From a virus (taxonomy: Duplodnaviria > Caudoviricetes), in the IMG/VR virus record IMGVR_UViG_3300021425_004041, positions 1 through 64,000 of that record: a stretch of 64,000 nt of DNA; one strand, given 5' to 3'. The notes below the pieces were generated by a model. It was not told where the DNA came from. It did not search any database and saw only the letters and a list, made by a program, of their open reading frames with translations. The position numbers and the translations under genes were made by a program. Positions 1-58,633 of this stretch are shown here, piece after piece; the first letter of the stretch is position 1, and every line of letters begins with the position of its first letter.

Positions 1-2199
1 TATTGCTGATGTAAGAGTTTGGAAAATCTCTGAGTTATTTCCAACATTTTCTTGCACTACGTTATTTTCATTTTTATTGTCATTTACTTTTTCTATTTCA
101 TCTGTTTTGATAGATGTCTTTTTCGTGTCTTGTGTTTCGTCTATTTGTGGAACTGTAACCTCTTTTGGATCTTCTTTTACTAGTTCTTCTTCTGAAAGAT
201 TTGTCTTTTTCGTGTCTTGTGTTTCGTCTATTTGTGGAACCGTAATCTCTTTTGGATCTTCATTTACTTTTTCTATTTCATCTGTTTTGATAGATGTCTT
301 TTTCGGGTCTTGTGTTTCGTCTATTTGTGGAACTTTTTCTTTATCCTTTGTTAAAAATTGTTGTAGTAAATCTTTATTATCACCTAGTAAATTTTGTAAA
401 ATCTCAGCTCCACTTTCAGTTAACGACTGTATTTCGTATTCTAACGCTTTTAGGTCCTCTGGACTTAAATTTTCTATTTCTCCTAGCTTATCTGCATAGA
501 GCTGTGCTAATTCCTGATTCTGTTTATCTTCCAGCTTCTTCCTCATGTCTGCTTTTGCCCTACCTGCTCCACCGCCTGCTTCTTCACTAAAAAATTCTGC
601 TCCTAATTCTCTACGCAATTTTGCCTTTTCAGACCCAATTTCAGTGTTAGCATATTGTTCATATAACTTCAATTGATCATCAGATATGCCTAGATCGGCT
701 CTCTCTTCCTTGGTTAATTTCTTTATTTCTTCAATTAAAGCTTTATCATCGTTTAACTTTAAAATATTTCCTGTCAAAGCATCTACTTTTTCTATCAATT
801 CTTTAGTAAAATTAGTAGCTGCTCCTGTTTGTACATCATCCTGGAACTCCCTCATCTGATCTTCATAATCAACTTCTGCTCCAAGTGCTGCCCTATTAAC
901 TGTCCGTTGAGCTTCAACCGTAACATCTGTTTGTGCTCTTTGAGCCGCTCCGATTGTCCTTCGTATTTCTCCACCTTCTGCCATCCCATCAAACTGTGCT
1001 GCAGTTTGATCAGTTGCTGCTTTAAGTGTATCATTCCATGCCCGTAAAAATGTAGCAGTGTCGCCGGTAATACCCTCAAGCCCTTCTATATTTCCTTTTA
1101 CCCTATCTATTATAGGTCCTATTTCTTCAAAAGCATCTGCTTGAGTTTTTGCAACATCACTGACTTGGGCAAGTGCAGCTAATCTTAATCCTTCCTCACT
1201 TTGAGCAAAAGCTGCAGCTTCTGCAGCAGCTTTTTCACTTAATTCTTTAGCTAATGCTATATCTCCTCTTTTTGTCGCTGCAGCAGCTTCTTCTAATAAT
1301 CCATATGTTTCGCTATTAAGTGAAGCAAAGTTTTTAGTTGCTTCACTCATAGGAACACCTGTTTGAATTAGATCATCTAATAAGTCTTGAACAACAGGTG
1401 CAGCTTGCTGTAACGCAGCCTGAGCACCTTCATATGCTTTACTTGCTCCTACTGCACCTCGTCTTTCAGCTAACTGCAGAGAAGCCTGGGTGGCACCAGA
1501 TTTTTTCCTTTGATTAATCTCATTTTGCATATCCTCTGCATTTTTGCCAGTTAATTTGCTAATAATTGTTAAAGATTTTGCATATTTGGCAGCTTGTTGA
1601 ATTTGTTGATTAGTTGATAGCCCTTGTAATCTCATACTCCTTTGATTTTGAGCAAGATACTTTACAGTAAATCCTGTTAATTCCTCTGTGCTGTATCCTA
1701 ACTCTCTAAATCTTACGTCCATTCCAGTATCACGCAGTGCTTGACCAATTGTACCAATTGCCTTTGCTCCGCCGTCAACTCCTCCTGCAAATCTCACAAG
1801 GTCTTTACTATTGCTGATAACAAGCTCAGCAAAGCCTGCTAATCCTAATCTAGAATCAGTTACAGATGTCCTTAATTGTATTAGATTACCAGATAATCCA
1901 CCTCCTACTTTGCTTAGATGTTCAAACGCAGTAATACCTGATTCAAAATAAGATGCAGCATCTGCTCCTACGTTTGCAAGAGATTGAAAAGTACTTCCTA
2001 ATACAGGAACTGCGCTTGATAGATTTCCAATGCCAGTAATTGTCTGTTGTAAACTTACAGTCCCTTGATTTAAAACTTGTGTAAACGAACCACTTGCACC
2101 TTCTAAGCTTTTAGTAAGGCTGTTGACCGATAAACCTGCTTTTTTTGCTTGCTCTAGCAATGTTTCCAATACTTTATCTAGTTCTTCTTGCGTTGGCAT
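1..2199 (-). CDS. Tape measure protein (3' end outside window)
   Basis: Read by hand from ATG at 2199 (MPTQEELDKVLETLLEQAKKAG...), AGGA RBS upstream, open to window edge (~733 codons). Ala/Gln/Glu-rich helical sequence (e.g. FRELGYSTEELTGFTVKY, SKLTGKNAEDMQNEI); adjacent to tail chaperone-like gene. Confidence 0.8.
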   Translation of the reverse strand, partial: MPTQEELDKVLETLLEQAKKAGLSVNSLTKSLEGASGSFTQVLNQGTVSLQQTITGIGNLSSAVPVLGSTFQSLANVGADAASYFESGITAFEHLSKVGGGLSGNLIQLRTSVTDSRLGLAGFAELVISNSKDLVRFAGGVDGGAKAIGTIGQALRDTGMDVRFRELGYSTEELTGFTVKYLAQNQRSMRLQGLSTNQQIQQAAKYAKSLTIISKLTGKNAEDMQNEINQRKKSGATQASLQLAERRGAVGASKAYEGAQAALQQAAPVVQDLLDDLIQTGVPMSEATKNFASLNSETYGLLEEAAAATKRGDIALAKELSEKAAAEAAAFAQSEEGLRLAALAQVSDVAKTQADAFEEIGPIIDRVKGNIEGLEGITGDTATFLRAWNDTLKAATDQTAAQFDGMAEGGEIRRTIGAAQRAQTDVTVEAQRTVNRAALGAEVDYEDQMREFQDDVQTGAATNFTKELIEKVDALTGNILKLNDDKALIEEIKKLTKEERADLGISDDQLKLYEQYANTEIGSEKAKLRRELGAEFFSEEAGGGAGRAKADMRKKLEDKQNQELAQLYADKLGEIENLSPEDLKALEYEIQSLTESGAEILQNLLGDNKDLLQQFLTKDKEKVPQIDETQDPKKTSIKTDEIEKVNEDPKEITVPQIDETQDTKKTNLSEEELVKEDPKEVTVPQIDETQDTKKTSIKTDEIEKVNDNKNENNVVQENVGNNSEIFQTLTSAI
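80..333 (-). repeat. Three in-frame coding tandem repeats (87/93-nt units) in the tape measure gene
   Basis: TCTTGTGTTTCGTCTATTTGTGGAAC occurs three times (ending at 153, 240, 333); 80-153 is almost identical to 260-333; encodes VPQIDETQD(P/T)KKT x3. Confidence 0.95.
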
Positions 2200-2236
2200 A
2201 AATATTTTCCTATAAAATTAACTGTTGTATTAATAC

Positions 2237-2242
2237 TATTTA
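2237..2242 (-). promoter_or_regulatory. Putative late promoter (TAAATA) for tape measure gene
   Basis: TATTTA on + strand ~40 nt upstream of the ATG at 2199; matches core of T4 late consensus TATAAATA; a + strand TAAATA at 2199-2204 faces the gp26-like gene. Confidence 0.5.
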
Positions 2243-2253
2243 TTTGGAGATTT

Positions 2254-3096
2254 ATGGCAAGCTTTCTAGATCAATTTACCCGTCAGCCTAAGATATTTGG
2301 AACTTTACCTAGTCAAGGAATCACATATAATGATGAAATAATCAGTGACATGAATGTGACTAGCATTCCTATTTTTGGAATGAATACTATGGATGAATTA
2401 ATTTTAAAAACACCCGACGCTTTATTTTCAGGTGAAGCTACAACTCTAGTGATTAAGAGTTGCATTCCTTCCATCTTAGATCCCTGGAAAATTTTAACTG
2501 CTGATATGGATTATTTGTTGATCGGTGTAAGAATTGCAACATATGGAGATAGATTACCTATTACAACAACATGTCCTAAATGCAAAGAGGAAACTAAGAG
2601 CGATCTGCATTTGCCTAGCTTACTAGACAACTATACTTCCCAAGAAGCTGTAGAAAAAATTACATACAACGGATTAGATCTCGATATTGTCCCTTTAACT
2701 TATGAAATCTCAACGAAAATATCAAAAGACAACTATCAAATGCAAAGAAGACTGTTACATATTGATGAACAAAAAGATTTACCAGATGAACAAAAAGATC
2801 TACAAAAACAAACAATTTACAAAAGTTTATCTATGTTAAATTTTGAGACTGTCTTACATCATGTTTATAGTATAAGTGACGGACAAAATGTAGAAACAGA
2901 CAAAGAAGAAATTTTTGCTTTCGTCAAAAATTCTGAGATAGGTTTATATAAATTAATAGAAGATGCTACGAATATAATTTCTAAAAAGTTTGCCCTACCT
3001 ACAGTTGATGTTGCCTGTGCAAGTGAAACATGTAATCACGTCTATAAAAGTGAAACTTCTTTTGATTATTCAAATTTTTTCGAAGTCAGATCTTAA
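2254..3096 (+). CDS. T4 gp26-like baseplate hub/tail assembly chaperone
   Basis: Likely start is ATG 2254 (GGAG at 2246-2249), not 2188. LPSQG, DELILKTPDALFSGEA, D.DYLLI.VRIATYG, CPKC zinc knuckle and C-terminal ..SNFF are typical of gp26-like proteins. Confidence 0.75.
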   Translation: MASFLDQFTRQPKIFGTLPSQGITYNDEIISDMNVTSIPIFGMNTMDELILKTPDALFSGEATTLVIKSCIPSILDPWKILTADMDYLLIGVRIATYGDRLPITTTCPKCKEETKSDLHLPSLLDNYTSQEAVEKITYNGLDLDIVPLTYEISTKISKDNYQMQRRLLHIDEQKDLPDEQKDLQKQTIYKSLSMLNFETVLHHVYSISDGQNVETDKEEIFAFVKNSEIGLYKLIEDATNIISKKFALPTVDVACASETCNHVYKSETSFDYSNFFEVRS

Positions 3097-3314
3097 AGCT
3101 CGATAGATCTGGCGTAGAACAATTAATTACTAAGCATGAGCAAGATCAAAAAACTATAAAATATAATATGTATAAGATTGGTTGGTACATGCGCGGAAGT
3201 TTAAGCTACACTGATTTAATGCGAAATATATCGGTTGACGACAAAGAAATAATGAATACAATTATAAAAGAAAACATTGATCTAAGTGTTCAAGCAAAGA
3301 TGCCTCTGCTGTAA
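3072..3314 (+). CDS. -1 frame extension of gp26-like gene (gp51-like / G-T type chaperone C-terminal part)
   Basis: Frame open 3066-3314 (KFFRSQILKLDRSGVEQLITKHEQDQKTIKYNMYKIGWYMRGSLSYTDLMRNISVDDKEIMNTIIKENIDLSVQAKMPLL*); begins at slippery A AAT TTT / T TTT TTC; first ATG only at 3168 with no clear RBS. Confidence 0.7.
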   Translation, partial: KFFRSQILKLDRSGVEQLITKHEQDQKTIKYNMYKIGWYMRGSLSYTDLMRNISVDDKEIMNTIIKENIDLSVQAKMPLL

Positions 3315-3316
3315 AT

Positions 3317-4351
3317 TTATTGTTTTATATGAGGAAAAAACTCTTGTAATGTTGACGTAATACGTTCAATGTCTAGATTCCTAACCATTCTAAGGAAAGT
3401 GGTTAACTTATCAATTACCCATCTATAGTTTTCAGGAACAAGTGCGAGTAATTCTTTTTGCTTACTTTCTAAGAGTGCTGCTGTTTCTTTTCCTTCTCCA
3501 AACGGTGTCATATTGCCAATACCAGAAATTAAAGAACAATCATCCATCAAAGACAACGATGAATAAACTGCAGTTTTACACCAATCTTCAATAGGTTCTT
3601 TAAAGTCTGCAGCAGAGAAAACGCTGTTAACAGCTTCTCCAGTCAGATACCCTCCTGCCAAAGCTACAAGTGCGGTTATTATAGCTGCAGCTCCTACAGT
3701 TGGAGCTAGACCAACTATAATTGGAGCTAATATACTAACTGTTATATAGCCGCCAGTACCCATAAACAATCCAGTAACTAAACGGTCAGTTAACAGTTCT
3801 ACTGATTCATCTATTTTTTTTCTAAAATAAGCAATGTCTACTGCTACCGGTCTTCCTGTATACGGACTAATATTGTTTCTGTTAAGTTTTTCACTACAAC
3901 CATTCAGTTCATAAGCTATTATGTAGCGTCTACTGTAAGTGATTACATCATCAGCAGCAGGAACCGTAATGGCTAATTTGAATAGCCATCCGCCAAACCA
4001 ACTTTTTGACCATTTTCGTGTTTTTTCTACTGTCTTCCTTTTTGCCTTTTTTAATTTTTCTTTATCTTTTTCTTTTTGTTTTTTATATTTGTCTTTGTCT
4101 TGTTGCTGATCTTCATCATTATATTTTTTCTTTTTAGTATCTTTAAAACGCTTTTTTTGGTTTTTATCTTCAGCATTTGCAGTTTTTGTAAGATTCTTTG
4201 CTTCAATTTTACCTTCATCACCTACAAATTCTTTATTAATATAATTCTTGTTTTCGATATCATATATTCGATAAACTGGTTGTCCTTTATCAAACGTTAA
4301 AGTTTGATGAATTACAAATCTTTCTTCATTTATTATTTGAGATACTAACAT
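3317..4351 (-). CDS. Hypothetical membrane protein, late-expressed
   Basis: 344-aa ORF with Lys-rich charged segment and long Gly/Ala hydrophobic stretch (GLFMGTGGYITVSILAPIIVGLAPTVGAAAIITALVALAGGYL); GGA RBS and TATAAATA upstream. Confidence 0.75.
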   Translation of the reverse strand: MLVSQIINEERFVIHQTLTFDKGQPVYRIYDIENKNYINKEFVGDEGKIEAKNLTKTANAEDKNQKKRFKDTKKKKYNDEDQQQDKDKYKKQKEKDKEKLKKAKRKTVEKTRKWSKSWFGGWLFKLAITVPAADDVITYSRRYIIAYELNGCSEKLNRNNISPYTGRPVAVDIAYFRKKIDESVELLTDRLVTGLFMGTGGYITVSILAPIIVGLAPTVGAAAIITALVALAGGYLTGEAVNSVFSAADFKEPIEDWCKTAVYSSLSLMDDCSLISGIGNMTPFGEGKETAALLESKQKELLALVPENYRWVIDKLTTFLRMVRNLDIERITSTLQEFFPHIKQ

Positions 4352-4371
4352 ATAATTTTATCCAATTACTG

Positions 4372-4379
4372 TATTTATA
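4372..4379 (-). promoter_or_regulatory. T4-type late promoter TATAAATA
   Basis: Exact TATAAATA on minus strand 21 nt upstream of ATG at 4351. Confidence 0.65.
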
Positions 4380-4380
4380 A

Positions 4381-4770
4381 TAATGAGCTACGCTCATTAG
4401 TGTTTTCGCTTACGCTCTAACACATTTCTTCTAGCATTAATAAATTAGAATCAATTAATGGTTCATGTAGATTGTTTTGGTCAGACGGAACCTGTACAAA
4501 GGTTCCAAGTCTTTTAGAAAATGTTTCATGTGAGTTGCATTTGCCGTGACTATGAAGTAGGTGTTTTGTACGACCCCAAGGGCTCCTGCCTTTCCCTTAC
4601 CTACACCGACATCATGTAAGTTAAACCTACACTATCCTCTGCTTCGTTCCTACCGCTAGAGGTTTTTAGGGGTTATCGTGAGTGAGACGCACCAGTATCC
4701 GGTGTTGTGTACAAACAACACCTCAAGATGGATTAGGCAACCCTAATCAAACAATGTCTCGTATATAGCC
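4381..4770 (-). ncRNA. Candidate structured non-coding RNA (or structured cis-element), family unassigned
   Basis: ORF-free, visibly more GC-rich than flanks, with many stems: 4381-4399, 4400-4423, 4487-4506, 4557-4604, 4636-4662, and 4684-4760 enclosing 4701-4722 and 4731-4748. Strand inferred from flanking minus-strand genes and a GC-GUAA-GC GNRA loop. Confidence 0.6.
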
Positions 4771-5286
4771 TTAAGCGCCTGTACAACAGGATTCAAATGC
4801 TTCTTTGTTCAATTCAAAGAAGTCATTGTAACCTGTAAGTCTCCAAGTGTTGTTAGCCTTGTCTGTGTAGTCTAAGTGCCTATTGGTTTTGAAGTTTTGT
4901 GGTAATTGGTATGCGATATATTTGCCTATTCGGTCAAATTTCATAAAGAGGATGTTCACATCGCCTTGGTCAGCTGCCTCAAGTGTTTGTTGTAGCCAGT
5001 TTTCAAGTTGTGGTATGGGGCCTTTAGTGAGTAATTGATGGAAGGGAAACCCTGCATAGTTTTTACACTCTGCATTGAAGTATTTCCAATGGTCAGGAGG
5101 AATAATATCTCCTTTATGGGCTCGTATTTGTCCTTCCGTAAGTCTTTCTCGACGATAATTGTTTTTACCGCCAGTAAAAGCACCACTGTCTGGAACTCTT
5201 GTAAATGAATTATTATACATTTCAGAGAGATGCTTTGCTATTTCTCTCTCGAACCCTTTGCCTTTTGATTTGCTTTTCGATGGCAT
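4771..5286 (-). CDS. Hjc-like Holliday junction resolvase (PD-(D/E)XK)
   Basis: KGKGFEREIAKHL, RVPDSGA, GDII and AECK motifs of archaeal/phage Hjc-type resolvases; downstream of gp46/47. Confidence 0.75.
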   Translation of the reverse strand: MPSKSKSKGKGFEREIAKHLSEMYNNSFTRVPDSGAFTGGKNNYRRERLTEGQIRAHKGDIIPPDHWKYFNAECKNYAGFPFHQLLTKGPIPQLENWLQQTLEAADQGDVNILFMKFDRIGKYIAYQLPQNFKTNRHLDYTDKANNTWRLTGYNDFFELNKEAFESCCTGA

Positions 5287-5458
5287 ACTTCTCGTGGATT
5301 TCTTTTTGTCTTTGTTTTGCTAAAGTAATTATCTTTCTTAAAGATCTCCGGCTTGAAGCGTGAGTCCTATGTGATAATTTACGCTCAAACTTCTCATTTT
5401 CGACAAAATATTCCATATATGCTTTTGTAAGCAAGTCATGCGTATCGTCAATTATCAT
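5222..5458 (-). CDS. Small basic hypothetical protein
   Basis: 78 aa, ATGA-coupled to gp46; helical, Arg/Lys-rich; overlaps resolvase by 65 nt. Confidence 0.65.
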   Translation of the reverse strand: MIIDDTHDLLTKAYMEYFVENEKFERKLSHRTHASSRRSLRKIITLAKQRQKEIHEKYAIEKQIKRQRVRERNSKASL

Positions 5459-7230
5459 ACTGCTACCTCTAAATCATTACTGTAAGATGTAAATCCATTT
5501 TCCTTAATAACTTTTAACACATGGTTAACTCTTCCAATTAGTTCATCCTTGTGACTAATAAGGAAAACATTTTTTTCTCGTTCTCTACCCATTTTTTTAA
5601 TTACTGCAAGTGAACCTTCTACTCCTGCAGTGTCCATCCCGCTGTCAATAAGTTCGTCAATGAATAATAAATTAATGTTTTGGTACAAACTCTCCCATAC
5701 ATCACGGAATGCAAAGCTCATACCAAGTATTAATCGATTCCTTTCGCCTCTGCTAAGGTTATCAAAGTCTAAATCCTGCCCAAGCTGGGTAATTTCTACT
5801 GCTAGATCGTTTTGGAACGTAACTTGATGTGGTAAACCTAGCCTATCTAGGTAATAAGTAAGCCTATTGTTGAGATATGCAAGATTTTGATCAATAATCT
5901 TCTTCCTAATGAACGAATCCTTGTTGGTTAACAACTTTAATAGGAATTCTTGATGCTCTTTATAGTCTGTAAGTGTGTTTACAGTATCCCAAACAATTTC
6001 TTGTAGTGCAGTATGAGACAATTCTTCAATTTGTTCTTGGTATGGATCTGTTTCTGCTAAGGTACGTTCTAATGTACTACGTAATTGTCCTACATTTTCT
6101 TTATGTTCGTATGCTTCCTTAACAGTATCATAAAAAGTGTCAGGCCTGCCATTAATATCACCAATTTCTATTAATCCTTGTTCAACATCTGTTAATTTTC
6201 TTGTGATTTCTGTTTGATATGTAACAGCATCTTCCAGCTCTTTGGACTTTTTATCTACCATTTCCTGTTTTTTGTCTGCATGTAGCGGTTGGTTACATGC
6301 ATAACATATAGCAGTTTCCAATTCTTCGATATCCTTTTTGACTTTATCAACTGTTTTATCTGCACGAGATAGAGCGCTCTCTAATGTAGCACGTTCCTTG
6401 TTTAGTGCTGTAATTGCGTTGTTGTGTTCATTCCAATCAGCGAGTTTTGTGTGTAAGTTTAGCTCGTTTTCAATGTCTAACTCTTCTAATTCGGTAATGC
6501 TACGTTGTAATTTACCGATTCCTTTTTCTTTTTGAGCTTTCCAGGCAGATTGTTTTAGTTTTAAGCTATCGATGCTATCTTGTATGTGTTCGTTACTGGT
6601 TTGAACTGCTCTAATCCGTGCTTCTTCTTCAGATATAGCTTCTTTGGTACTCCGTACCTGTTCTTTTAGCCGTTCTGCCTTTTCTGATAACAGTGTAATA
6701 CCTAATAGCTGTTCAATAATCATCCTTTGATCATTCTGTCGCATGTTAAGGAAAGGTTCCGTATAGGTATTAAGTGCAACAACATGTTTAAACATGTCAT
6801 GACTCATACCAAGTAGCTCATTTATAGCCTCTTGTGTCTTCCTACTGTCTCCTTGGCTCTCGTCTAGGATTTCCTGTTCTTGATTGTTAATATAAAACTT
6901 CATTACATTAGGGGATCTACCTCTTTCTATCCTATAGTCAGTATTATTCTTCTCAAAATGTAATGTAACCAGCATTCCCTTACTATTTGTCTTATTAATT
7001 AAGTTATTTCTCTTGATATTAGTAAGAGCTTGCCCATATAATGCGTATGATAGTGCATTAATAATAGTAGTTTTGCCTGTTCCATTACGAGATCCAGTAT
7101 CATCACCACCTTGATCTAAGTTCTCACCTAAAACTAATGTTAATTGTTCTTTGCTAAAATCTATGGCTTGCGTTTGATTACCAACGCTCATAAAGTTTTT
7201 AACTGTAAGGTCTTTTATTTTAATTGGCAT
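5455..7230 (-). CDS. gp46: Recombination endonuclease ATPase subunit (gp46/SbcC/Rad50)
   Basis: Walker A (NGTGKTT), coiled coil with CYAC zinc hook, signature LSRGE, Walker B LLFIDE, D-loop SGMD, ISH switch. Confidence 0.95.
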   Translation of the reverse strand: MPIKIKDLTVKNFMSVGNQTQAIDFSKEQLTLVLGENLDQGGDDTGSRNGTGKTTIINALSYALYGQALTNIKRNNLINKTNSKGMLVTLHFEKNNTDYRIERGRSPNVMKFYINNQEQEILDESQGDSRKTQEAINELLGMSHDMFKHVVALNTYTEPFLNMRQNDQRMIIEQLLGITLLSEKAERLKEQVRSTKEAISEEEARIRAVQTSNEHIQDSIDSLKLKQSAWKAQKEKGIGKLQRSITELEELDIENELNLHTKLADWNEHNNAITALNKERATLESALSRADKTVDKVKKDIEELETAICYACNQPLHADKKQEMVDKKSKELEDAVTYQTEITRKLTDVEQGLIEIGDINGRPDTFYDTVKEAYEHKENVGQLRSTLERTLAETDPYQEQIEELSHTALQEIVWDTVNTLTDYKEHQEFLLKLLTNKDSFIRKKIIDQNLAYLNNRLTYYLDRLGLPHQVTFQNDLAVEITQLGQDLDFDNLSRGERNRLILGMSFAFRDVWESLYQNINLLFIDELIDSGMDTAGVEGSLAVIKKMGREREKNVFLISHKDELIGRVNHVLKVIKENGFTSYSNDLEVAV

Positions 7231-8240
7231 TATAATTCATTGTAAATGTCTAACAGTGTGTTTTTGTTGAAGTTTTCGCTGTCAATTGCATTAATTTCTT
7301 TAGAAACAATTTCATCTACTGTTTCAAACTGGCTAATATCTAGTTCTGTTGATATTTCTTCAATCTGTTTCTGTGGAATAAGCACAATTTCTCTACAATT
7401 GTATTGCGATATATATGTTTCTTTGATAAATTGTGCTTCCTCATATGATATCGGTAGGTCTAGTGTAACCCTAAGATACATATTTGGTTTAATTATGTTT
7501 GCTTGTGGATCTAATAGCTTACTTAGTGTTGTAGTACGATACTTAGGAGCATCAGACCAATTAATATATTCAGGTGCAAGGTTATTTTCACGATCAAATA
7601 TCATCATACCACGTTCATCGTCACCTGCATCTGCATAGTTGTGGGGAAATGCATTACCGATATACTGTATCTTACCTTGTTTTTGACGTTTATGGAAGTG
7701 ACCACTGAACACAAGGTCTTGATTTTTGAAATGCTCAGGACGTAAATCACCATGTTCAGGCATTTTTACCATTGCATTCATATAAAAATGTGGTAATTCA
7801 AAGTGTCCAAACATGTATTTTGATTTACATTGCTCAATAAGTTTCCATTCATCGCCTACTAGCCAAGGTACAAGTGCAACATCGTCAATTTCTGTAAATG
7901 AGTTAACAAATTCTATACCTTCAATGTGCCTAGCAAAGTCAGTAGAACTTACATCACGCTTATCTTTATAGTATAAATCGTGATTACCTGTAAAAATATA
8001 AAAAGTGTCAAATGCTGCACCTAATTTTTCTAAACTACGGAGTGTGGCCTGCATAGTTGTGAGATTTAAACTATTACGATTGTGATGCCAGTCTCCGCAA
8101 AAAATTCCAGTATCGCATTTGTTTTCTTGTGCAGTTTTGATAAACCAGTCGATAAAGTTTTCACAATCGTCATTATGTATTTTACTATTACCTTTTAAAC
8201 CAAAATGTATATCAGTAAATACTGCTGCTTTTTTAAACAT
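7230..8240 (-). CDS. gp47: Recombination endonuclease nuclease subunit (gp47/SbcD/Mre11)
   Basis: Metallophosphoesterase motifs DIHFG, GD, GNHD, GH, SGHFH; TAATG-coupled to gp46. Confidence 0.95.
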   Translation of the reverse strand: MFKKAAVFTDIHFGLKGNSKIHNDDCENFIDWFIKTAQENKCDTGIFCGDWHHNRNSLNLTTMQATLRSLEKLGAAFDTFYIFTGNHDLYYKDKRDVSSTDFARHIEGIEFVNSFTEIDDVALVPWLVGDEWKLIEQCKSKYMFGHFELPHFYMNAMVKMPEHGDLRPEHFKNQDLVFSGHFHKRQKQGKIQYIGNAFPHNYADAGDDERGMMIFDRENNLAPEYINWSDAPKYRTTTLSKLLDPQANIIKPNMYLRVTLDLPISYEEAQFIKETYISQYNCREIVLIPQKQIEEISTELDISQFETVDEIVSKEINAIDSENFNKNTLLDIYNEL

Positions 8241-8246
8241 AAAAAT

Positions 8247-9032
8247 TTAGAATGTATTGTTTTCTTGGAATTCTTTTTCTCTCTTTAAAGCTACTTCCCA
8301 TTCGTCATTCGCTTGTCTAGTGTAGCTAGGATTCATATTATTCATTTCCAAAATATCGTCACGGATGTTTTGATTACGTTTTTCTAAATTAATTACCCTA
8401 ACAAAACTGTTAGTAACTGCGGCTGTATAGTATGCGAATGGATTTTGACTTTTAGATTCGTCAAATTGTAAACCGATCTGTGCTAATTGCAGTATTGCTT
8501 GTCCTCTCATTTCATCATTGTAAGTATAACCTCTAACATTACCTCTTGTAGCGTATCTTTCGCAAAGTTTCAACCACATTAAAGCAAGTTTATCAGTAGC
8601 TGTACCGTGTGACATAGAAAAACACCCACTATCTAGATCACCAATCCAATGACTTTTTCCAACACAAATTAATTCATTGTTGTCATTAAATTTCCAGTGT
8701 TGGAATGGTGGAAAATTTAGTTTTATTTTGGTGTCTGCAATAGATTTTGGATTTTTTTTCCTGCCAGGTTCGTCTGGAATATGGTCATACGTCATTAATC
8801 GAAATACTATATTTTGTATTTGTAAATTTGACGGATCGCTAATTGTTATGCCTTTTCGTTTAATTAGATTTTTTTTTGATTCTAATATTAAATCGTCATT
8901 TATTTCTGATAATGAGTAGATTATAGAATCAAACTCGTTATAAATTATATTAGTAAAACTGCAAAATGTAGTTTTACTTTTATGAATTTCGCTTAAAATA
9001 TCTCGATTATTTAGATAATTTTGTTTTTTCAT
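8247..9032 (-). CDS. gp55: gp55-like late-transcription sigma factor
   Basis: RGYTYNDEM...FDESKSQNPFAYYT...NSFVRVINLEK matches the T4 gp55 family pattern; gp55-gp47-gp46 order as in T4-like phages. Confidence 0.85.
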   Translation of the reverse strand: MKKQNYLNNRDILSEIHKSKTTFCSFTNIIYNEFDSIIYSLSEINDDLILESKKNLIKRKGITISDPSNLQIQNIVFRLMTYDHIPDEPGRKKNPKSIADTKIKLNFPPFQHWKFNDNNELICVGKSHWIGDLDSGCFSMSHGTATDKLALMWLKLCERYATRGNVRGYTYNDEMRGQAILQLAQIGLQFDESKSQNPFAYYTAAVTNSFVRVINLEKRNQNIRDDILEMNNMNPSYTRQANDEWEVALKREKEFQENNTF

Positions 9033-18584: not shown

Positions 18585-21500
18585 ATGGCTTTTACAAATG
18601 ATCAAACAGAACCAAGTCTTCCTGCAGATAGTTCTCAACCAAGGAAGTCGGTAAATCATTTACCAAAATATTTTAGGACAGAATACAATCAAAAATTTCT
18701 ATCTACAACATTAGATCAAATGATTCAGCCAGGTAAAGTTGAGCAACTTAATGGTTTTTATGGTAGAAGAACAGCAAGAGCTTTTGATTATAACAAAGAT
18801 ATATATGTAAAAGATATAACACAAGAAAGGCAAGATTATCAATTAGAACCAGTTATTGTTCAAAAAGATGAATTAAATAATCTGAACTATTATGCAGATT
18901 ATGTAGATTTTATAAATTCATTGAAAATTAAGAATGGATCAGTAGTTGATCATAATGTAATTAATGGCCAAGAATATTATGCATGGAATCCGCATATAGA
19001 CTGGGATAAATTTGTAAATTTTAGAAATTATTATTGGTTACCTAACGGACCAGTTACCTTAACAGTTGCAGGGCAAGAAAAAGAAGTTGAAAGCGAATAT
19101 ACTATTAGATTACAAGATAATGCAGATAATTTTACATATATTTTTACACCAGATGGGTTAACGAATAATCCTACTATTACTCTTTATAGAGGACAAACTT
19201 ATGTGTTTGATATCGATACTACTAATTATCCAATAGCATTTGTTACAAGGAAAACCTTTACACCAGGAAAAGAATATAATGAACCTACAGAGAATACATC
19301 ATTAATCTACACAAATGGTTTAGTAAAAAAAGATGAAAATGGATTGATTACAGATGAACCTTTTTTATCAAAAGGTATAATTGAGTTTACTATTCCAGAC
19401 AATGCTCCTGATGTTTTATATTACATATCAAAAGATGATCCTAATTTATCAGGCACAATAAAAATTTATGATATTATAGAAAATACAGCGATAAATGTTG
19501 AAAAAGAAGTAATTGGTAAAAAAAATTATAAAACAAGTTCGGGTTGGAAGTTTTCTAATGGTATGAAAGTTGAATTTGCTGGTAATGTTTTTCCAGCAAT
19601 ATATGGCGAAGGAGAATGGTATGTAGAAGGAGTTGGAACTGCAATTAAATTAATTAATACAAAAGATTTAGAATTAAATTCATTATTTGTAGAGGACATT
19701 GAAGTAGAATTTGATAATAAAGGTTTTGATGACATGCCTTTTGACGAAGCTCTAGGTTATCCTGTAAAAAAAGATTATATTGTAATTAATAAAGCAAGTA
19801 ATGATGGAAACTTATGGAGCAAATATAATCGTTGGTTTCATATAGATGTTATAGAAAAATCGTTAGAAATAAATCAGCAAATTCCTAGTGTAGATCAATC
19901 TTTAAGAGCAAATAGACCTATAATTGAATTTGAACCAAATATTAAATTATATCAATTTGGAACACAAACAAAGCAAAATGTAAATTTGGTTGACACAATT
20001 ACTAAAGATGTTTTTTCTACAATTGAAGGTAGTATAGGTTATAATATAGATGGTATTGATTTGACAGAAGGTATGAGAATTTTGTTTTTAAATGATAATG
20101 ACATATTTGTTAAAAATAAAATTTTTAAAGTTTTTTTTGTAAACATTAAGAATAATATTCAAATAACATTAAAGGAAGAAACAGATGCAGTACCTTTATT
20201 AAATGAAAATGTTTTAATAACCCAGGGTAATCAAAATAAAGGAAAATACTTTTACTACGATGGCGAAACATGGCACAAAGGTCAAGAAAAGTATAGTTTA
20301 AATCAATCTCCTCTTTTTGATATGTATGATGAAGAGGATGTTTGGTTAAAAGATCTGTTAAAGTATCAATATAGTCAATTTATTGGAAATAGAATATTTT
20401 CGTATGCTGTAGGACAAGGTAATAATGATAGTGTATTAGGATTTCCATTAAAATATCAAAATATAGAGAATAGTGGAGATATTGTTTTTAATTTTGATTT
20501 GTTGAATAGTGAATTTTCGTATTATGATAATAATAGTGTGAAAATTTATAAAACAGATATTGCATTTTTAAGAAAGTACTATGATAAAGATAATTATGAA
20601 TTAATAAATGGATGGGAAAAGGCAAATACGTTTAGTCAGCAAGATGTAATTTTGCAGTTATTGTCTACTAATGATAATATGTATGCACTGGATATGTATG
20701 AGTCAATAGATTTAAATGATTTTAGGATAAAAGTATTTGTAGATAATAGATTGCAAGTAGAAAATGTGGATTACCAACTAATAACTAACGATAATAATGA
20801 TTATTTTCTCACATTTATAAAACAATTACCGCTAAACAGTAATATTGTTTTTAAAACAAGATCTAGTAAACCTAAGACTGCTAGCGGTTTTTATGAAATA
20901 CCGGCTAGTTTAGAAAAAAATCCTAGTAATGATAATTTGTATCAATTTACTTTAGGAGAAGTAAATGATCATGTAGGTTCTATTGTAGAAGAACTTACTA
21001 CTTTTACAGGAAATTTTCCAGGTATAGGAAATTTACGAGATTTAGGAAATTTATCAAGTTATGGTAAAAAATTTTTAAAGCATTCGGCATTATACAATTT
21101 GTATTCTTATCATATTTTAGATAAGCAAGCTAACGTTATGGATGCTATTAGTTTTGCTCAAAAAGAATACTCTAAATTTAAAAGATTATTTTTACAAACT
21201 ATTTCAACCATTGGGTTTCAAGGAGAAACGCAACAGACATTTGAAAAAGTTTTAGAAGAAATTGTAAAAGGCAAATCAAAAGATTTGCCTTATTATTTTA
21301 GTGATATGATTCCTTATACAGGTAAAAAAATAAATTCTAATTTGATTGTTGATGTAGATCAACAATTTTTTCCTTTAAGTTCAGATTTTAATTTAGATAC
21401 TCCTTCAAATAGAGCAGTTTTGGTTTACAAAAATGAAATTTTACTTTTGTACGGAGTTGATTATGATTTCTCTAATCCAGGATTTGTACGTGTATTTGGA

Positions 21501-24500
21501 AATAAAGAAGTAAATGATGTTATAGATGTTTATGAGTTTGAGAATACGTTTGGAAGCTTCGTTCCCCAAACTCCTACAAAACTTGGCTTATTTCCTAAAT
21601 ATGCTCCTCGAATTTATATAGATGACAGTGTTGTAAGTAAGCAGGCAGATAGCAGCAGTGGTCCATTTAAAATTTATGGATATACTAAAAAGGAAGGATT
21701 AGGCTGGTATCATCCAATTTTTACGGATTATGCAGCAGCTAAAGAATATGACAAAAATAATAGCGGAAATGGGGAAGTATCTTTAGTAAAATTTGATGAT
21801 GTTCCTACAGTTTTTTACATGCCTATGTCAAGTAAAATAATTAGTATGAATGATACTGAAAAATTTGAATCATGGCACCAAGACACAGTTATTATTCAAG
21901 GCCATGATGGTAGTAAAATTTTAGCCTTTAAAGATTATAGAGATACTTTAATTTTAGAATTAGAAACACGAATTTATAATAATATTAAAGTAAATTACGA
22001 TAGTGACTTGTTTGATCTACATAAAATTTTACCAAGTTTTTACAGGAAAAACTTGATAAAAAAAGAAAATTTATATAATGCAATGTTAAATGATTTTGTA
22101 AATTGGACAAAATTAATTAATATAGAATATTCCCCGCACTTATATTTTGATTTAACTAATCCTTATACATATAATTATGCAAGCTCTTTTCTTGAAAATG
22201 GACAACGAAGTCCAGGTTGGTGGAGAGCTATTTATGAATATGTTTATGATACAGATAGGCCTCATACTCATCCCTGGGAAATGTTAGGATTCACAGGAAA
22301 ACCAGACTGGTGGGATGCCGAATACGGCGTTGGACCTTATACAAACAATAATTTACCTTTGTGGCAAGATTTAGAAAATGGAATTATTAGAAAGCCTTTT
22401 TTTAAAATAGATGCAAGATTTTCTAGACCAGGATTAAGCAAAATTATTCCTGTAGATCAAAATGGTAAATTACTCAATCCTGCTTTTGCAAATGTTATTA
22501 AACAATATAACAGGCAAGAAATGCAAGAAAATTTTAAATTTGGAGACGGTGGTCCTGTTGAGACGGCTTGGAAAAGAACTAGTGAATATCCTTTTAGTTT
22601 GTTAAAAGCATCTATTTTGCTGCAACCTGCTTATGTTTTTTCAGGTAGTTTTGATAGGATACAACAAAAAAGAAATATTGCAGGACAAATAATTTATAAT
22701 GTAAGTAAAAATCATATACAGTTGTCTAGCTTACAGTTTCCAGATGAAGTATCAAATATGTTTGCAAGTGGGTTGATAAATTACATTGTAGAATATCAAA
22801 ATAAACATTTTCTAAATAGGTTTAATGAGTATGTTAATATTGTAAAAAATTTAAAAAATCAGTTAGGATTTAAAGTAGGCGGCTTTACTGATAAAAGTAA
22901 ATTTAAATTAATATTAGATAGTAGATCACCGCTTAATAAAGGTAATGTATTTGTTCCTGATGAAAATTATGATGTTTATTTGAATACAAGTTTTCCAATA
23001 AATGAATTTGTTTACAGTGGAGTAATGATTCAAAAAGAGTCTAATGGATTTGTTATTAAAGGATATGATGAAAATTTTTCTAAATTTCCTTATTATAAAC
23101 CTTATACAAAGAGTAGCAATGCAACATTCAATGTAGGAGGAATAAGCGAAACATTTGTTACATGGGATTCCGGAAAAACATATGCAAAAGACACTATAGT
23201 CAAGGTAGATACTGTATATTATAGAACAAAAATTACTCATGTAAGTGGAGATAATTTTGACACTTCAAAATTTGCAAAATTACCAAGGTTACCGATAATT
23301 GGCGGAGCTGTAGCAAAGTATAGACACATTTATGATGGTTTTTTAAGTTATTTAGAGTATGGAACTCTGTTAACAGGAGTACAAGATGTTGTTGATTTTT
23401 TGTTTGGTTATGGTCATTATTTAGAAACTGTAGGATTTAAATTTGAAAAATTTTTAGCAAATACTACAGAGATATCAGATTGGGTATATAGCATCAAGCA
23501 ATTTTTGTTTTGGACAACACAAAATTGGGGCGAAGGATCGATTATAACATTAAGTCCGGCTGCTGATGAAGTAAAGTTTCAAAATGATTATGCAGTTGTA
23601 GGCAATACCTTAGAATCATCTATAGGATTTAGTGTTCTTAAAGCTGACGGAACGGTAATTCCTAAAGAAAACTGTAAATTTTTTAGAGATACAGATAATA
23701 GTTTTTCAGTTAAGGTTGTAAATTATACTGGAGGTATTTATTTTATTAAAATTCCGTTAGTTACAAAAGAGCACATTGTTTTAATTGATAATACAACAAT
23801 TTTTAATGATATAATTTATGATCCTACTCCTGGCTATAGGCAAGAAAGGATAAAAGTAGCTGGCTATAGAACAGCAAATTGGAATGGATCTTTAAATATT
23901 CCTGGATTTTTTTATGACACAGCAACCGTCAAAAATTGGACTGTGTATACAGATTATAATGCAGGTGATGTTGTTAAATTTAAAGAATTTTATTATACTG
24001 CTAAACAAAAAATATTTGGAAGCGATAAATTTGAATTTAATAGGTGGAAAAGATTAGCTGAACCACCGCAAGCGAAATTATATTCTAATTTTGATTATAA
24101 AATAGAGCAATTTAAAGATTTTTATGATTTAGATAGCGATAATCTTGATACAAATCAACAAAAGATAGCACAACATTTAATAGGTTATCAGAAACGGAAA
24201 TATTTAGAAAATATTATTAATAGCGATGTTAGTCAATATAAATTTTATCAAGGCTACATACAGGAAAAAGGTACTAAAAATGCATTGACAAAATTATTTG
24301 ATGTTTTAGCAAGCTCTAGTAAAGATAGTTTAGAATTTTATGAAGAATGGGGTGTAAGAGTTGGACATTACGGTGGTACTGAAATTTTTGATGAATTTGA
24401 TTATATTCTAAAAGAGAATGATTTTAATTTAAAACCACAACCTGTTGTATTAACAAACACAACTTCTAAAAATATAGATTATATAAATCGCATAAAAAAG

Positions 24501-41323: not shown

Positions 41324-41326
41324 ATA
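41319..41326 (+). promoter_or_regulatory. T4-type late promoter TATAAATA
   Basis: Exact consensus 28 nt upstream of ATG 41354 (GGAG RBS); last clear intergenic promoter before the enzyme cluster. Confidence 0.6.
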
Positions 41327-47551: not shown

Positions 47552-48282
47552 ATAAAGTCCCTAACATAATTGTTATAGGCTGTAGTTGGTCTAAATGGGG
47601 AGACAACGATTTTTTCAGCAATTCAGCCTTAAAAAAAGATAGTGTAAGTAGTTGGCCATTATTGCTGAGTGAGCAATATGATTGTAATGTTGAAAATTTC
47701 TCGCTATTAGGTAACAGTATAGCTTTCCAGTTTTATACTTTTTTAGAAATACTAAAAAATTACAAATTAGAAGAAATTGATTTAATAATTTTACAAATAA
47801 CATCTTTTTATAGGCAATCTTTTAAAATATCAAATAGTAAGTTTCAAAATACGAATATTAAAGAAGATTTAAAGACTATTACACCTAAATATAGAAGTTT
47901 AAAATGTGATAGAATTGAACATCATAATCCTTATGCTCCGGCAAAATTTTTTAATCTTGGTAATAAGTCATTTTTTAGAAGATTATGTACAATGAATGCA
48001 AAATATTCTATTAATGCTGCTATAGAATTTGAAATAGCATGGATTGATAAAATATTAATTTTATGTAAAGAAAAAAATATACCTTGTCTTCCTTGGCAAT
48101 ATCGCAATGGACATAATTTTTGGGCATATGAAAAAGCTGAGTTTATTCTTGAAAAAGAATTATCTAATAAATTATGGCAAAAGTTTATAGTAGATGAAGG
48201 AAAACATTTTAACACAAAAGGACAACAATATATATTAGATCATTTTTTGTTAGACAGAATACGTAAATATGTACAATTATGA
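47545..48282 (+). CDS. SGNH/GDSL-like hydrolase or acyltransferase
   Basis: N-terminal GCSWS (block I), G.S block II, C-terminal DEGKHF (DxxxH). Confidence 0.65.
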   Translation: MLNKVPNIIVIGCSWSKWGDNDFFSNSALKKDSVSSWPLLLSEQYDCNVENFSLLGNSIAFQFYTFLEILKNYKLEEIDLIILQITSFYRQSFKISNSKFQNTNIKEDLKTITPKYRSLKCDRIEHHNPYAPAKFFNLGNKSFFRRLCTMNAKYSINAAIEFEIAWIDKILILCKEKNIPCLPWQYRNGHNFWAYEKAEFILEKELSNKLWQKFIVDEGKHFNTKGQQYILDHFLLDRIRKYVQL

Positions 48283-49342: not shown

Positions 49343-49357
49343 TATGGGAAAAAATAA

Positions 49358-55982: not shown

Positions 55983-55983
55983 A

Positions 55984-58624: not shown

Positions 58625-58633
58625 ATAAAATAT

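Follow-up and report, generated by a model that had tools for sequence, protein, structure and literature searches.

Few large RNAs have a complex tertiary fold, and nearly every class found to date, among them RNase P, self-splicing introns, tmRNA, riboswitches and the bridge and omega RNAs, has proved to have a notable biochemical function. In the T-box specifier codon, the group I/II intron guides and the IS110 bridge RNA, a constant scaffold carries an exchangeable short recognition word, and the variable word covaries with a complementary internal or known target. Phage T4 has the stable RNAs C and D, which are 120-140 nt long, linked to tRNAs and located beside segB (GIY-YIG) and ipI, and the T4-type phages also carry promoter/stem-loop cassettes (PeSL). 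The large 'ornate' RNAs GOLLD and ROOL often occur in phages and prophages (PMC12286853). They share with the RNA described here a length of >300 nt, an elaborate fold, phage association, an unknown function and an origin in the comparative genomics of uncultured sequence; they differ from it in that no sequence or structure match was found (Rfam 15 has both) and in that our RNA has no neighbouring tRNA genes. A catalogue built from IMG/VR lists 8,495 candidate structured RNAs with a mean length of 67 nt (PMC10690425), and may hold fragments of the RNA described here.

The locus lies in a 64,000-nt stretch of viral DNA (the window), positions 1 to 64,000 of IMG/VR record IMGVR_UViG_3300021425_004041. 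An earlier note, made from the sequence alone, had pointed to the only long non-coding gap in it. Between the 42 non-overlapping ORFs of ≥70 aa there are just two gaps longer than 150 nt, one at 3097-3316 (220 nt) and one at 4352-4770 (419 nt), and the second is indeed the sole one >220 nt. Its reported richness in G/C was also seen: the G+C content (200-nt windows) is 0.39-0.455 over 4400-4799, against 0.245-0.28 just downstream and ~0.30-0.40 in the genes on either side. Within the gap the minus strand has no ORF of ≥30 aa. On the minus strand and upstream of it lie the genes for the late sigma factor gp55 (8250-9032; phrog_12791, E 3.5e-74), an SbcD/gp47-like protein (7233-8240), an SbcC/gp46-like protein (5458-7230) and a PDDEXK_15 or 'RusA-like resolvase' protein (4774-5286; 4771-5286 with the stop codon), and these matches over 4774-9032 uphold the gene names that had been proposed. 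The TAA stop codon of the minus-strand resolvase ORF is at 4771-4773, and the element begins immediately 3′ of it, as had been noticed. On the other side, a T4 late-promoter-like motif, TATAAATA (4372-4379, minus strand), stands 21 nt before the start codon (4351) of the next minus-strand ORF, a 344-aa neighbour outside the RNA (3317-4351, beginning MLVSQIINEE); the window has 7 copies of this motif versus 21.4 expected. No recognisable promoter belonging to the RNA itself was seen, and a simple scan gave terminator-like sites on the plus strand only.

Judged by its relatives, the region from 4380 to 4770 is the probable minus-strand gene of a large non-coding RNA that is conserved and covarying. 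It belongs to a widespread family of uncultured T4-like phages, of which no earlier description was found in the literature searched. Pattern scans revealed the RNA in >230 IMG/VR loci: the stretches found with each of four independent anchor patterns numbered 24, 98, at least 120 and at least 120, and the Pw-GUCUGA anchor is present in 237 collected loci. The covariance model R1 recognised the window with 112.8 bits (E 5.6e-23, minus strand); this was its only match in the 86-kb record, where the RNA is single copy. When the window element, a main-clade member and the 64-nt most conserved block were compared by blastn with 50,697 GenBank phage records, no match was observed, and R1 did not match the whole genomes of SCTP-2, PA5oct, Phosso or Melnitz; in the first three, other genes come straight after the resolvase gene. 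A scan of one genome from each of 185,579 bacterial species with two patterns yielded 7 stretches. Four of these are phage-like contigs binned into MAGs, and the other three (L109, L110 and L217) were rejected as chance matches without the other motifs.

In the window the gp55, gp47, gp46 and resolvase genes precede the RNA, and the TATAAATA motif and a variable gene follow it. The relatives keep this position, with early/middle DNA-metabolism genes before the RNA, and a late-promoter motif and a hypervariable gene after it; in the main clade the consensus TATAAAT comes after the 3′ hairpin. The RNA is co-oriented with the upstream ORF in 166/170 loci. The upstream gene itself is swapped by clade (PDDEXK, SegE-like GIY-YIG, a small zinc-ribbon ORF or radical SAM) with the RNA unchanged. 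A GIY-YIG nuclease gene adjoins the RNA in most loci; cultured Kyanoviridae-type phages, Melnitz among them, commonly have this gene. The SegE-like GIY-YIG protein was rejected as a dedicated partner, since its gene is common in 460 cultured phage records and Melnitz, the one of these whose genome was scanned with R1, gave no match.

All of the stems listed in the earlier note were found in the sequence, where they read, in plus-strand letters, TAATGAGC/GCTCATTA (4381-4399), GTGTT/AACAC (4400-4424), GGAACC/GGTTCC (4487-4506), GTAGGT/ACCTAC with inner AAGGG/CCCTT (4557-4604), CCTCT/AGAGG (4637-4661), and GAGAC/GTCTC enclosing GGTGTTGT/ACAACACC and GATTAGG/CCTAATC (4684-4760). The ~390 nt do not form one unit as had been supposed; they divide into a clade-specific 5′ domain, a core of ~225 nt, a variable spacer and a separate double-hairpin module. 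The features that follow are all on the minus strand and are given 5′ to 3′. In the 5′ domain (4684-4760), which is present in the window's clade only, a predicted GAGAC/GUCUC stem closes the junction of two hairpins, GAUUAGG/CCUAAUC (4731-4748) and GGUGUUGU/ACAACACC (4701-4722). Within this clade, which is near-identical and nearly invariant, changes in the multiloop are few: they lie in its loops, or disrupt a pair in a single sequence. The 5′ domain of the other clades is different and longer, and begins AAGGUUGGCGGGCCAG.

The conserved core (4457-4680) consists of six helices, two pseudoknots and ~60 invariant nucleotides, most of them unpaired. The invariance of several motifs was partly built in by the search patterns, and each was cross-checked with a pattern omitting that motif. 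The core starts with the 5′ strand of P_L, ACGAUAACCCC (4669-4679), which pairs across P_y with 4570-4577 to form pseudoknot 1. A conserved A-rich joiner, UAAAAAC (4662-4668), leads to hairpin Pa (4637-4661), with a covarying stem and an invariant GGAACGA in its loop, and then to hairpin Pb (4614-4632), a site of variable insertion that is 12-81 nt long in relatives. The triplet just 5′ of P_y (4605-4607), GGU here and GAC in most relatives, pairs with the Pc loop as pseudoknot 2. Helix P_y (4557-4604; GUAGGU at 4599-4604 and ACCUAC at 4557-4562) encloses both hairpin Pc (4578-4598), whose loop is AAAGGCAGGAG, and the 3′ strand of P_L (4570-4577). The window deviates from the consensus in the Pc loop and in a UUCC motif, and its pseudoknot-2 triple has 2/3 standard pairs. 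An irregular hairpin, Pv/Pz (4507-4552), bears in its loop, after ACUC, the first copy of a heptamer, ACAUGAA (4525-4531). Hairpin Pw, GGAACC/GGUUCC (4487-4506), is followed by the near-invariant single strand GUCUGACC (4479-4486); GTCTGAC was present in 140/146 distinct sequences retrieved by a pattern without GTCTGAC. The 3′ tail AUCUACAUGAA (4462-4472) holds the second heptamer copy, ACAUGAA (4462-4468). Beyond an AU-rich spacer (4425-4461), which varies even among near-identical relatives, lies the 3′ module (4381-4424), with the hairpins GUGUU-GAGCGUAAGCGAA-AACAC (4400-4424) and UAAUGAGC-GUA-GCUCAUUA (4381-4399); it is probably a terminator or stabiliser.

Covariation was analyzed in 101 non-redundant sequences (<93% identical). 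With the two pseudoknots included, 95.1% of the cells held standard pairs, against 31-44% when the partners were slid by 1-3 columns. Changes on both sides were seen in 19 of the 33 pairs (298 cells), and 0/500 shuffles matched the real alignment on any of five measures; the covariation check in relatives proposed in the earlier note came out in favor of the element. In pseudoknot 1 (P_L), 4/4 counted pairs had both-side changes and 97.4% were paired; cognate helix halves were more stable than non-cognate ones, with -11.4 versus -6.1 kcal/mol for the P_L duplex. The corresponding values for pseudoknot 2 were 3/3 pairs and 99-99.7%, and for Pa 7/7 pairs and 83% (MAFFT register). P_y was 99.3% paired and Pc 96.5-98% paired, each with 2 pairs compensated. 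The changes in Pw, 98% paired, were mostly one-sided (G-U). Pv, 64% paired in the MAFFT register, is weakly supported, and the Pz stems, inspected by eye, differ across sequences yet still pair. Pb had a mean fold z of -5.0, with 98% below -2 (91 distinct sequences). In the 3′ hairpin at 4381-4399, each of 8 pairs occurred as 3-5 pair types (84 main-clade sequences). The stems of the hairpin at 4400-4424 covary by eye in the alignments; the automatic counts did not recover it, their locator being too strict (56/203 loci). Three further pairings were rejected. For a 'P4-like' pseudoknot, GGUCAGA/UCUGACC, GUCUGAC is unchanging, and it is the GAC triplet 5′ of P_y that makes up for the loop changes; GUCGA/UCGGC overlaps the better-supported triple and has uncompensated changes on its 3′ side; and CUGGU/ACCAG, between the Pz flank and the tail, is inconsistent across sequences by eye.

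The paired columns also reveal the strand. We counted 271 G-U cells and 45 A-C cells, and standard pairs made up 95.1% on the minus strand versus 88.3% on the opposite strand. This excess of G-U over A-C indicates that the RNA is the minus strand, and not the plus strand on which the stems had first been drawn; it argues for selection on RNA, and we found no support for the alternative proposal of a replication or packaging cis-site. Folding energy against shuffled sequences gave a divided answer. The plus strand did better than its shuffles (z -3.43, 0/100); the minus (sense) strand did not pass this measure, which the earlier note had itself put forward, because 10/100 shuffles folded as well (z -1.24). 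At the level of sequence, it is the comparative evidence, and not single-sequence folding, that settles whether the element exceeds chance. Compensated helices beyond controls, strand-specific G-U pairs and the lack of an ORF, as expected of a structured non-coding RNA in general, were all found.

The heptamer occurs twice per RNA, in the loop of the Pz hairpin and in the 3′ tail, and the copies are 57-68 nt apart and at fixed distances from hairpin Pw. With a pattern taken from the 5′ half only, the consensus word was missing from the loop in 35/146 and from the tail in 34/146 distinct sequences. Among non-consensus heptamers, the identical changed word was present in both copies in 24 of 25 distinct pairs, with 12 different words; many of the variant sequences are related, and independent events number at most 12 words, some perhaps of shared history. 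Over 144 distinct pairs, heptamer positions 0-5 were 100% identical, position 6 99.3% and position 7 27%; as the copies were aligned by their longest common substring, positions 0-6 are bound to be identical, and hence the real test is the 24/25 concerted variants together with the fixed flanks, not the 100% figure. The left flanks are conserved but different, CUC in one copy and UCU in the other, pyrimidine-only and 0% identical. In two loci, L236 and L240, the repeats are 10-11 nt long. These data show a lock-step rule, in which two copies evolve so as to stay identical, that we have not seen described; to our knowledge, twin co-evolving heptamers are no feature of GOLLD or ROOL RNAs.

No partner for the word was detected nearby. 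No exact reverse complement of the heptamer was seen at a recurring place within the RNA in 36 variant loci, and from -330 to +60 nt no recurring 7-mer was fully pairable with it, G-U allowed. Neither the RNA nor the surrounding ~5 kb yielded a complement. Other roles were considered. The word does not mimic the start of the downstream gene, as start contexts stay AUGAAA-like whatever the heptamer, and the copies cannot pair with each other in general, since several variants (ACAGAAA, ACAGGAA) lack a self-complementary core. That the word is read as an extended codon by a tRNA anticodon loop is speculative: in most variants its complement has U at position 33 and retains a purine at position 37, but A-starting codons would need U, not C, at heptamer position 2. 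A small ORF from the tail AUG (3 codons in the window) is conserved neither in length nor in sequence. The guide and specifier RNAs have in common with our RNA a constant scaffold, a short stretch that changes between lineages and a rule other than simple conservation; it differs from them in having two mutually identical copies and no complement found.

We favor the reading, with a probability of about 0.6, that 4380-4770 (minus strand) encodes a large trans-acting non-coding RNA in which a knotted scaffold holds two equivalent heptamer recognition sites for one partner. The RNA would arise as the 3′-terminal part of the gp55-gp47-gp46-resolvase transcript, as the earlier note had proposed for a functional RNA and as a conserved, covarying RNA on the same strand would allow; the late sigma gene, the TATAAATA motif 21 nt before the next ORF and the upstream co-orientation provide the transcriptional context. 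The double hairpin would end or stabilise it, and the RNA would then act in trans. Its core could be a rigid scaffold that presents the two heptamers to one sequence-specific partner recognising both, most economically a base-pairing nucleic acid, and in that case the RNA would serve as a two-site guide, or as a decoy/sponge, with a joint change of the two words resetting its specificity. A protein partner, or an enzyme acting on both sites, fits the twin words equally well. A more specific form of the idea, which we put forward only tentatively, is a programmable two-site module, in which the rigid double-pseudoknot scaffold holds out two identical 7-nt guides that pair with two copies of a complementary target word, and lineages retarget by altering both guides at once. 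The target would be DNA or RNA belonging to the host, to a competing phage or to the phage's own genome or transcripts, and pairing might join the two sites, or direct a nuclease or the RNA's own catalysis there.

Ribozymes keep invariant unpaired nucleotides on a knotted scaffold with variable peripheral domains, and it could be that the knotted core is catalytic and that the heptamers are two substrate sites treated alike. Cleavage at both copies, or cleavage and rejoining, would release or remove the 57-68 nt between them. The ~60 invariant nucleotides, mostly in unpaired joiners and loops, the double-pseudoknot scaffold and the variable peripheral domains agree with such a ribozyme or self-processing RNA, as do the conserved pyrimidine-only left flanks of both sites, CUC and UCU, and the fixed distances of the copies from Pw. 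We nevertheless find it doubtful, for nothing inside the RNA could serve as a guide complementary to the heptamer, even with G-U, no likeness to any Rfam ribozyme appeared at E up to 10, and no form lacking the inter-copy segment occurs among 146 distinct sequences, a count that speaks to DNA only. The position of the element could instead point to a cis-acting 3′-UTR and insulator without a role in trans, which would shield the early mRNA from 3′ exonucleases and stop early transcription before the late-promoter-driven gene: it follows immediately on a stop codon and shows no recognisable promoter, it is co-oriented with the upstream genes (166/170 loci), and a conserved covarying hairpin comes just before the late-promoter motif. 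A stabiliser or terminator, however, needs no ~60 invariant unpaired nucleotides, two pseudoknots or co-evolving heptamers, and the upstream gene changes between clades with the RNA constant; we think this account unlikely. The spacer between core and hairpin module varies freely, which argues against a coupled switch, and a late-promoter motif lies between the RNA and the downstream gene; both bear on a riboswitch leader as well.

It is also conceivable that selection acts on the DNA, the heptamers being the cores of recombination sites or direct-repeat protein binding sites, and the block an anchor for swapping of the downstream gene. In the overlap regions of site-specific recombination sites the word changes while the identity between sites stays, and the 7-bp words behave similarly; relatives with 96-100% identity upstream have different downstream genes, and the 3′ hairpin with its promoter resembles the mobile promoter/stem-loop cassettes reported for T4-type phages. 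The compensatory helix changes and the 6:1 excess of G-U over A-C denote selection on a single strand of one polarity, copies 57-68 bp apart are close for synapsis, and no recombinase gene is a constant neighbour (neither recombinase nor reverse transcriptase was found among the neighbouring ORFs tested), so that we hold a DNA-level element to be very improbable. It is scarcely credible that the RNA is a group I intron, an RNase P RNA, a tmRNA (including two-piece forms) or a GOLLD/ROOL RNA so divergent that it escaped the Rfam models of these known large classes. The likenesses are superficial: the interleaving of P_L with P_y is reminiscent of P3/P7 in group I introns, and GGGAAAGGUCAGAGCCC resembles the CR-I sequence of RNase P. 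At gathering score none of the 4227 models of Rfam 15 matched anywhere in the window or in 20 diverse relatives (100,585 bases), in keeping with the statement in the earlier note that no family could be assigned, and at E up to 10 the window element and two full-length main-clade members gave only unrelated eukaryotic and sRNA noise, with no RNase P model among the matches. Marine T4-like phages carry two-piece tmRNAs (PMC9004378); ARAGORN found no tmRNA or tRNA in the window, and no Rfam tmRNA model matched. There are no flanking exons.

The group I introns of T4-type phages deserve a closer comparison. They share with our RNA the phage setting, a GIY-YIG neighbour, an interleaved helix pair and an A-rich joiner that stands after the first strand of the long-range helix; they differ in that our RNA has no exons, no P1/P10 pairing and no match to the Rfam Intron_gpI model. 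An interrupted gene was rejected because the upstream ORF is complete (TAA), and because the downstream ORF, preceded by a promoter motif and with a start codon of its own, differs among relatives. The candidate 5′ hairpin for a P1 with a U-G pair shows no covariation, and position N in AACACNUAAGG varies freely. The order of the helices differs from the P3-P8/P4-P6/P7 scheme of the group I core; a hairpin lies between the P_y 5′ and P_L 3′ strands, where introns have none, and no P8-like hairpin is present. The T4 RNAs C and D resemble our RNA in that their locus lies between a GIY-YIG gene and an internal-protein (here, at most, internal-protein-like) gene in a hyperplastic region; the window has no tRNAs. 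With the PeSL cassettes only the 3′ module (4372-4424) can be compared. In both, a variable gene is bordered by a conserved hairpin with a promoter motif right behind it, but the promoter motif in the window is of the late type and the hairpin follows a large structured RNA, not an ordinary gene.

The RNA is abundant in uncultured T4-like phages, a jumbo-phage fragment included, and its well-defined double-pseudoknot core suits structural work. The lock-step heptamers offer a direct experimental handle on the partner, and the two-site guide reading, if true, would add a new kind of RNA-guided system in T4-like phages. The RNA also marks the border of a hypervariable locus of internal-protein-like genes. 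[quoted passage not shown] The downstream genes fall into 45 sequence clusters, and no Pfam or PHROG matches were found. A start of the form M-x-[IVLMFA]-x(1,2)-[IVLMF]-x(1,3)-E is found in 89/141 distinct downstream proteins and in 0/145 upstream proteins. In T4-type phages an N-terminal capsid targeting sequence is carried by otherwise diverse internal proteins (PMC3012670). The ORF at 3317-4351 is a candidate for an internal protein, and it differs among otherwise near-identical relatives.

The RNA gene lies within the gap 4352-4770, and all genes surrounding it lie, as it does, on the minus strand. On its upstream side are a gp55-like late sigma factor (8250-9032, minus), an SbcD/gp47-like gene (7233-8240, minus), an SbcC/gp46-like gene (5458-7230, minus), a 78-aa ORF (minus), and a PDDEXK_15 'RusA-like resolvase' (4771-5286, minus). 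On the downstream side is a 344-aa ORF without family (3317-4351, minus). The earlier note had drawn attention to a long, G/C-rich gap with several stems; 4352-4770 is the longest gap among the 42 ORFs of the window, its G+C exceeds that of its surroundings, and all the listed stems were found in the sequence. The second-longest gap (3097-3316, 220 nt) has a convergent baseplate-hub gene (2188-3096, plus) on one side and the 344-aa ORF on the other. The IMG/VR record containing the window measures 86 kb and is 18% complete according to CheckV, and hence is probably a jumbo-phage fragment. Among cultured phages the closest to it are PA5oct, Phosso, Atu_ph07 and SCTP-2, each with less than 50% protein identity.

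The fold of the RNA core was derived from an alignment of 101 sequences with mutual identity below 93%, made with MAFFT, which is not structure-aware. All column pairs were searched for stacked, compatible and varying pairs, and a six-helix structure was then counted. Standard pairs filled 95.1% of 3,289 cells, against 31-44% when the 3′ partners were slid by 1-3 columns; both sides had changed in 19 of 33 pairs (298 cells), and none of 500 shuffles reached any of five measures. On the minus strand, helix P_L pairs 4669-4679 with 4570-4577 (4 of 4 counted pairs compensated) and is followed by Pa (4637-4661), with an invariant GGAACGA loop, and by Pb (4614-4632), a hairpin that varies, being 12-81 nt long in the relatives, with a mean fold z of -5. 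P_y (4599-4604 with 4557-4562) encloses Pc (4578-4598), and a triple of bases 5′ of P_y (4605-4607) contacts the Pc loop; its three pairs are all compensated and 99% paired, two of them being standard in the window itself. Then come Pv/Pz (4507-4552), where the Pz stems vary in sequence and keep their pairing and Pv is 64% paired in the MAFFT register, and Pw (4487-4506). The core thus contains two pseudoknots, one from the crossing of P_y by P_L and one from the triple, which crosses P_y as well as Pc. Cognate halves paired better than halves taken from different sequences, both for P_L (-11.4 vs -6.1 kcal/mol) and for Pa (-7.7 vs -3.6 kcal/mol). G-U pairs exceeded A-C oppositions by 271 to 45, which identifies the aligned strand, the minus strand of the window, as the selected one.

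A covariance model built on the 3′ 159 positions gave 112.8 bits for the window (E 5.6e-23), its single hit in the 86-kb record. About 60 columns, mainly joiners and loops, are invariant (UAAAAAC, GGAACGA, GUCGAC, GGGAAAGGUCAGAGCCC, ACCUACUUCC, GUCU and GGUUCCGUCUGAC); this invariance is partly built in by the search patterns, but every motif was also recovered in samples from patterns lacking it. The folding energy of a single sequence is less informative: the excess over shuffled controls that the earlier note called for holds for the plus strand of 4352-4770 (z -3.43) and fails for the minus, or RNA, strand (z -1.24). Conservation and covariation among relatives, which it also called for, were both found, so that comparison supports the element where single-sequence folding does not. 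In a simple scan, terminator-like hairpins at 4381-4399 and 4487-4506 were both reported on the plus strand and none on the minus; they might be active in both directions.

Outside the core, which is constant, the 5′ domain differs across the family. In most members it begins near AACACnUAAGGUUGGCGGGCCAG and comprises ∼170 nt with covarying hairpins of its own, and some other members have a shorter form; in the window's clade the 5′ domain has the GAGAC...GUCUC junction described earlier, as a candidate fold. The spacer 3′ of the core varies even between near-identical relatives. It is followed by two hairpins, and in 84 sequences of the main clade the second has 8 pairs with 3-5 pair types each and is directly followed by the consensus TATAAAT. 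In the window, TATAAATA is found at 4372-4379 (minus), 21 nt ahead of the next start codon. The whole window carries 7 copies where shuffles predict 21.4, and two of them, this one and 41319-41326 (plus), lie 21-28 nt before ORF starts. This would fit a late promoter motif of the gp55 type, avoided in the rest of the window.

Nine close relatives, reached through the resolvase protein (96-100% identity), carry the element nearly unchanged, and their downstream genes become unalignable a few dozen bases past it. A 21-nt word from the element retrieved 24 IMG/VR stretches, among them a divergent clade with the same core and a different 5′ part, and of three more patterns, each with distinct conserved words, one retrieved 98 and the other two at least 120 each. 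In all, 237 loci among the matches listed have the Pw-GUCUGA anchor, in a sampling biased by the search patterns. Blastn against 50,697 GenBank phage records gave no match, nor did the covariance model with four whole cultured genomes. Among prokaryotes (one genome each of 185,579 species) nothing was found beyond four phage-like contigs of 24-335 kb binned into two MAGs, Crocinitomicaceae (L216, L218) and Neomarinimicrobiota (L219, L220). These are probably mis-binned phage contigs, or possible hints at hosts.

The Pz loop reads ACUC-ACAUGAA and the 3′ tail AUCU-ACAUGAA, and both copies of the heptamer keep constant distances from Pw. A sample collected with a pattern confined to the core's 5′ half gave 146 distinct sequences among the matches listed; the consensus word was absent from the loop in 35 and from the tail in 34. 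Loop and tail words change together. Among 144 distinct loop/tail pairs, the three-base left flanks (CUC vs UCU) were always unlike, and the eighth position was identical in 27%; the seven heptamer positions were 99-100% identical, a figure that is no test, because longest-common-substring alignment forces identity within each pair. The test is therefore given by the pairs with a word other than ACAUGAA in at least one copy: in 24 of 25 such distinct pairs, from mutually related lineages, loop and tail had the same variant word. Twelve variant words were seen (ACAUGAU, ACAUAAU, ACGUGAA, GCAUGAA, GCAUAAA, GUAUGAA, ACAGAAA, ACAGGAA, ACAUGAG, ACAUAAA, AUCAUCA and GGUUAAU), the last two as parts of 10- and 11-nt repeats. 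Neither within the RNA nor in the 2-15 kb of flanking sequence examined did a reverse complement recur at one position, and between -330 and +60 nt there was no recurring 7-mer that could pair fully, G-U allowed. Mimicry of the downstream gene's start was rejected, as the start context does not vary with the word. Since the copies stay identical, are not complementary and lack an internal partner, the simplest reading is that a single external, sequence-specific partner uses both as equivalent sites.

The RNA thus has a conserved, strand-specific, double-pseudoknotted fold, two identical heptamers that co-evolve, and a constant genomic position, and we are confident that it is a real functional RNA of the minus strand. 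No promoter of its own is recognisable, from which we infer that it is transcribed together with the upstream early/middle genes. The double hairpin would end or protect it, and the rigid core would display both heptamers, through which the RNA would act in trans. To the whole proposal, with action in trans and recognition of both sites by a single partner included, we assign a probability of about 0.6. The twin words could instead be the substrate sites of a ribozyme, which we consider unlikely with no complement at a recurring place. A purely cis-acting element, 3′-UTR plus insulator, we regard as equally unlikely.

With helices kept by compensated pairs and G-U well in excess of A-C, a recombination or binding element acting at the DNA level is very improbable. 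Least probable of all is a known RNA class of which a member was missed: as in the earlier note, no family could be assigned. Rfam 15, whatever the threshold, had no match to the window, 20 diverse loci or two full-length main-clade members, and ARAGORN found no tRNA or tmRNA. The nearest known RNAs include GOLLD and ROOL, the other orphan large phage RNAs, and scaffold-plus-guide RNAs; none shares the sequence or the fold order, or is known to show the twin-word rule. The literature searched holds no description of the RNA, and fragments of it may be listed in the supplements of PMC10690425, a catalogue of short candidate structured RNAs from IMG/VR. On this evidence we rate the RNA as a new class.

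The upstream ORF is co-oriented with the RNA in 166 of 170 loci. In 142 of these 170 it belongs to one cluster of ∼145-aa proteins, and all five members tested match SegE_GIY-YIG; a PDDEXK resolvase takes this place in the 15 loci of the window's clade, as well as in loci L040 and L042. Cultured marine T4-like phages often carry the GIY-YIG gene (460 records, with Melnitz the best match at ∼50%), and the covariance model found no RNA in the Melnitz genome. Because the gene is common and Melnitz is without the RNA, the association is read as shared gene order, not partnership. This SegE-like protein (PHROG 447; H60-H79) is widely labelled 'NAD synthetase' in phage records, which looks like a propagated misannotation, the Pfam match being to a GIY-YIG nuclease domain. 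In main-clade loci such as L044, L022 and L083, the pentamer AGGCA, often as TAGGCA or AAGGCA, is repeated many times in and between upstream ORFs, 100-200 nt upstream of the RNA. It might be a promoter or modification motif.

By sequence, the downstream genes form 45 clusters, none matching Pfam or PHROG, and differ even among relatives that are 96-100% identical upstream. An N-terminal motif like MK[IV]x[DE][IL][IL]xE was present in 89 of 141 distinct downstream proteins and in 0 of 145 upstream ones; the window's downstream ORF (3317-4351, minus) begins MLVSQIINEE. The motif is reminiscent of T-even internal proteins' capsid targeting sequence. The downstream locus thus looks, from its proteins' N-termini, like one of hypervariable, capsid-targeted internal proteins. 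The T-even internal proteins are described (PMC3012670) as highly diverse and anti-restriction, with the capsid targeting sequence as their sole conserved part. A hypervariable locus of injected-protein-like genes, probably expressed late, would then have the RNA as its upstream border.

The immediate upstream neighbour of the RNA at locus L099 is a radical SAM ORF. The window itself has at least 11 radical SAM ORFs in tandem at 48269-63997 (plus), many with SPASM domains, and within this run an Asp/Arg beta-hydroxylase-like ORF (58634-59350), a stock of peptide- or nucleoside-modifying enzymes that is unusually large among phages. In its structural region a single ORF of ∼5,450 aa (18585-34940, plus) adjoins baseplate, tail-collar and virion-protein genes.
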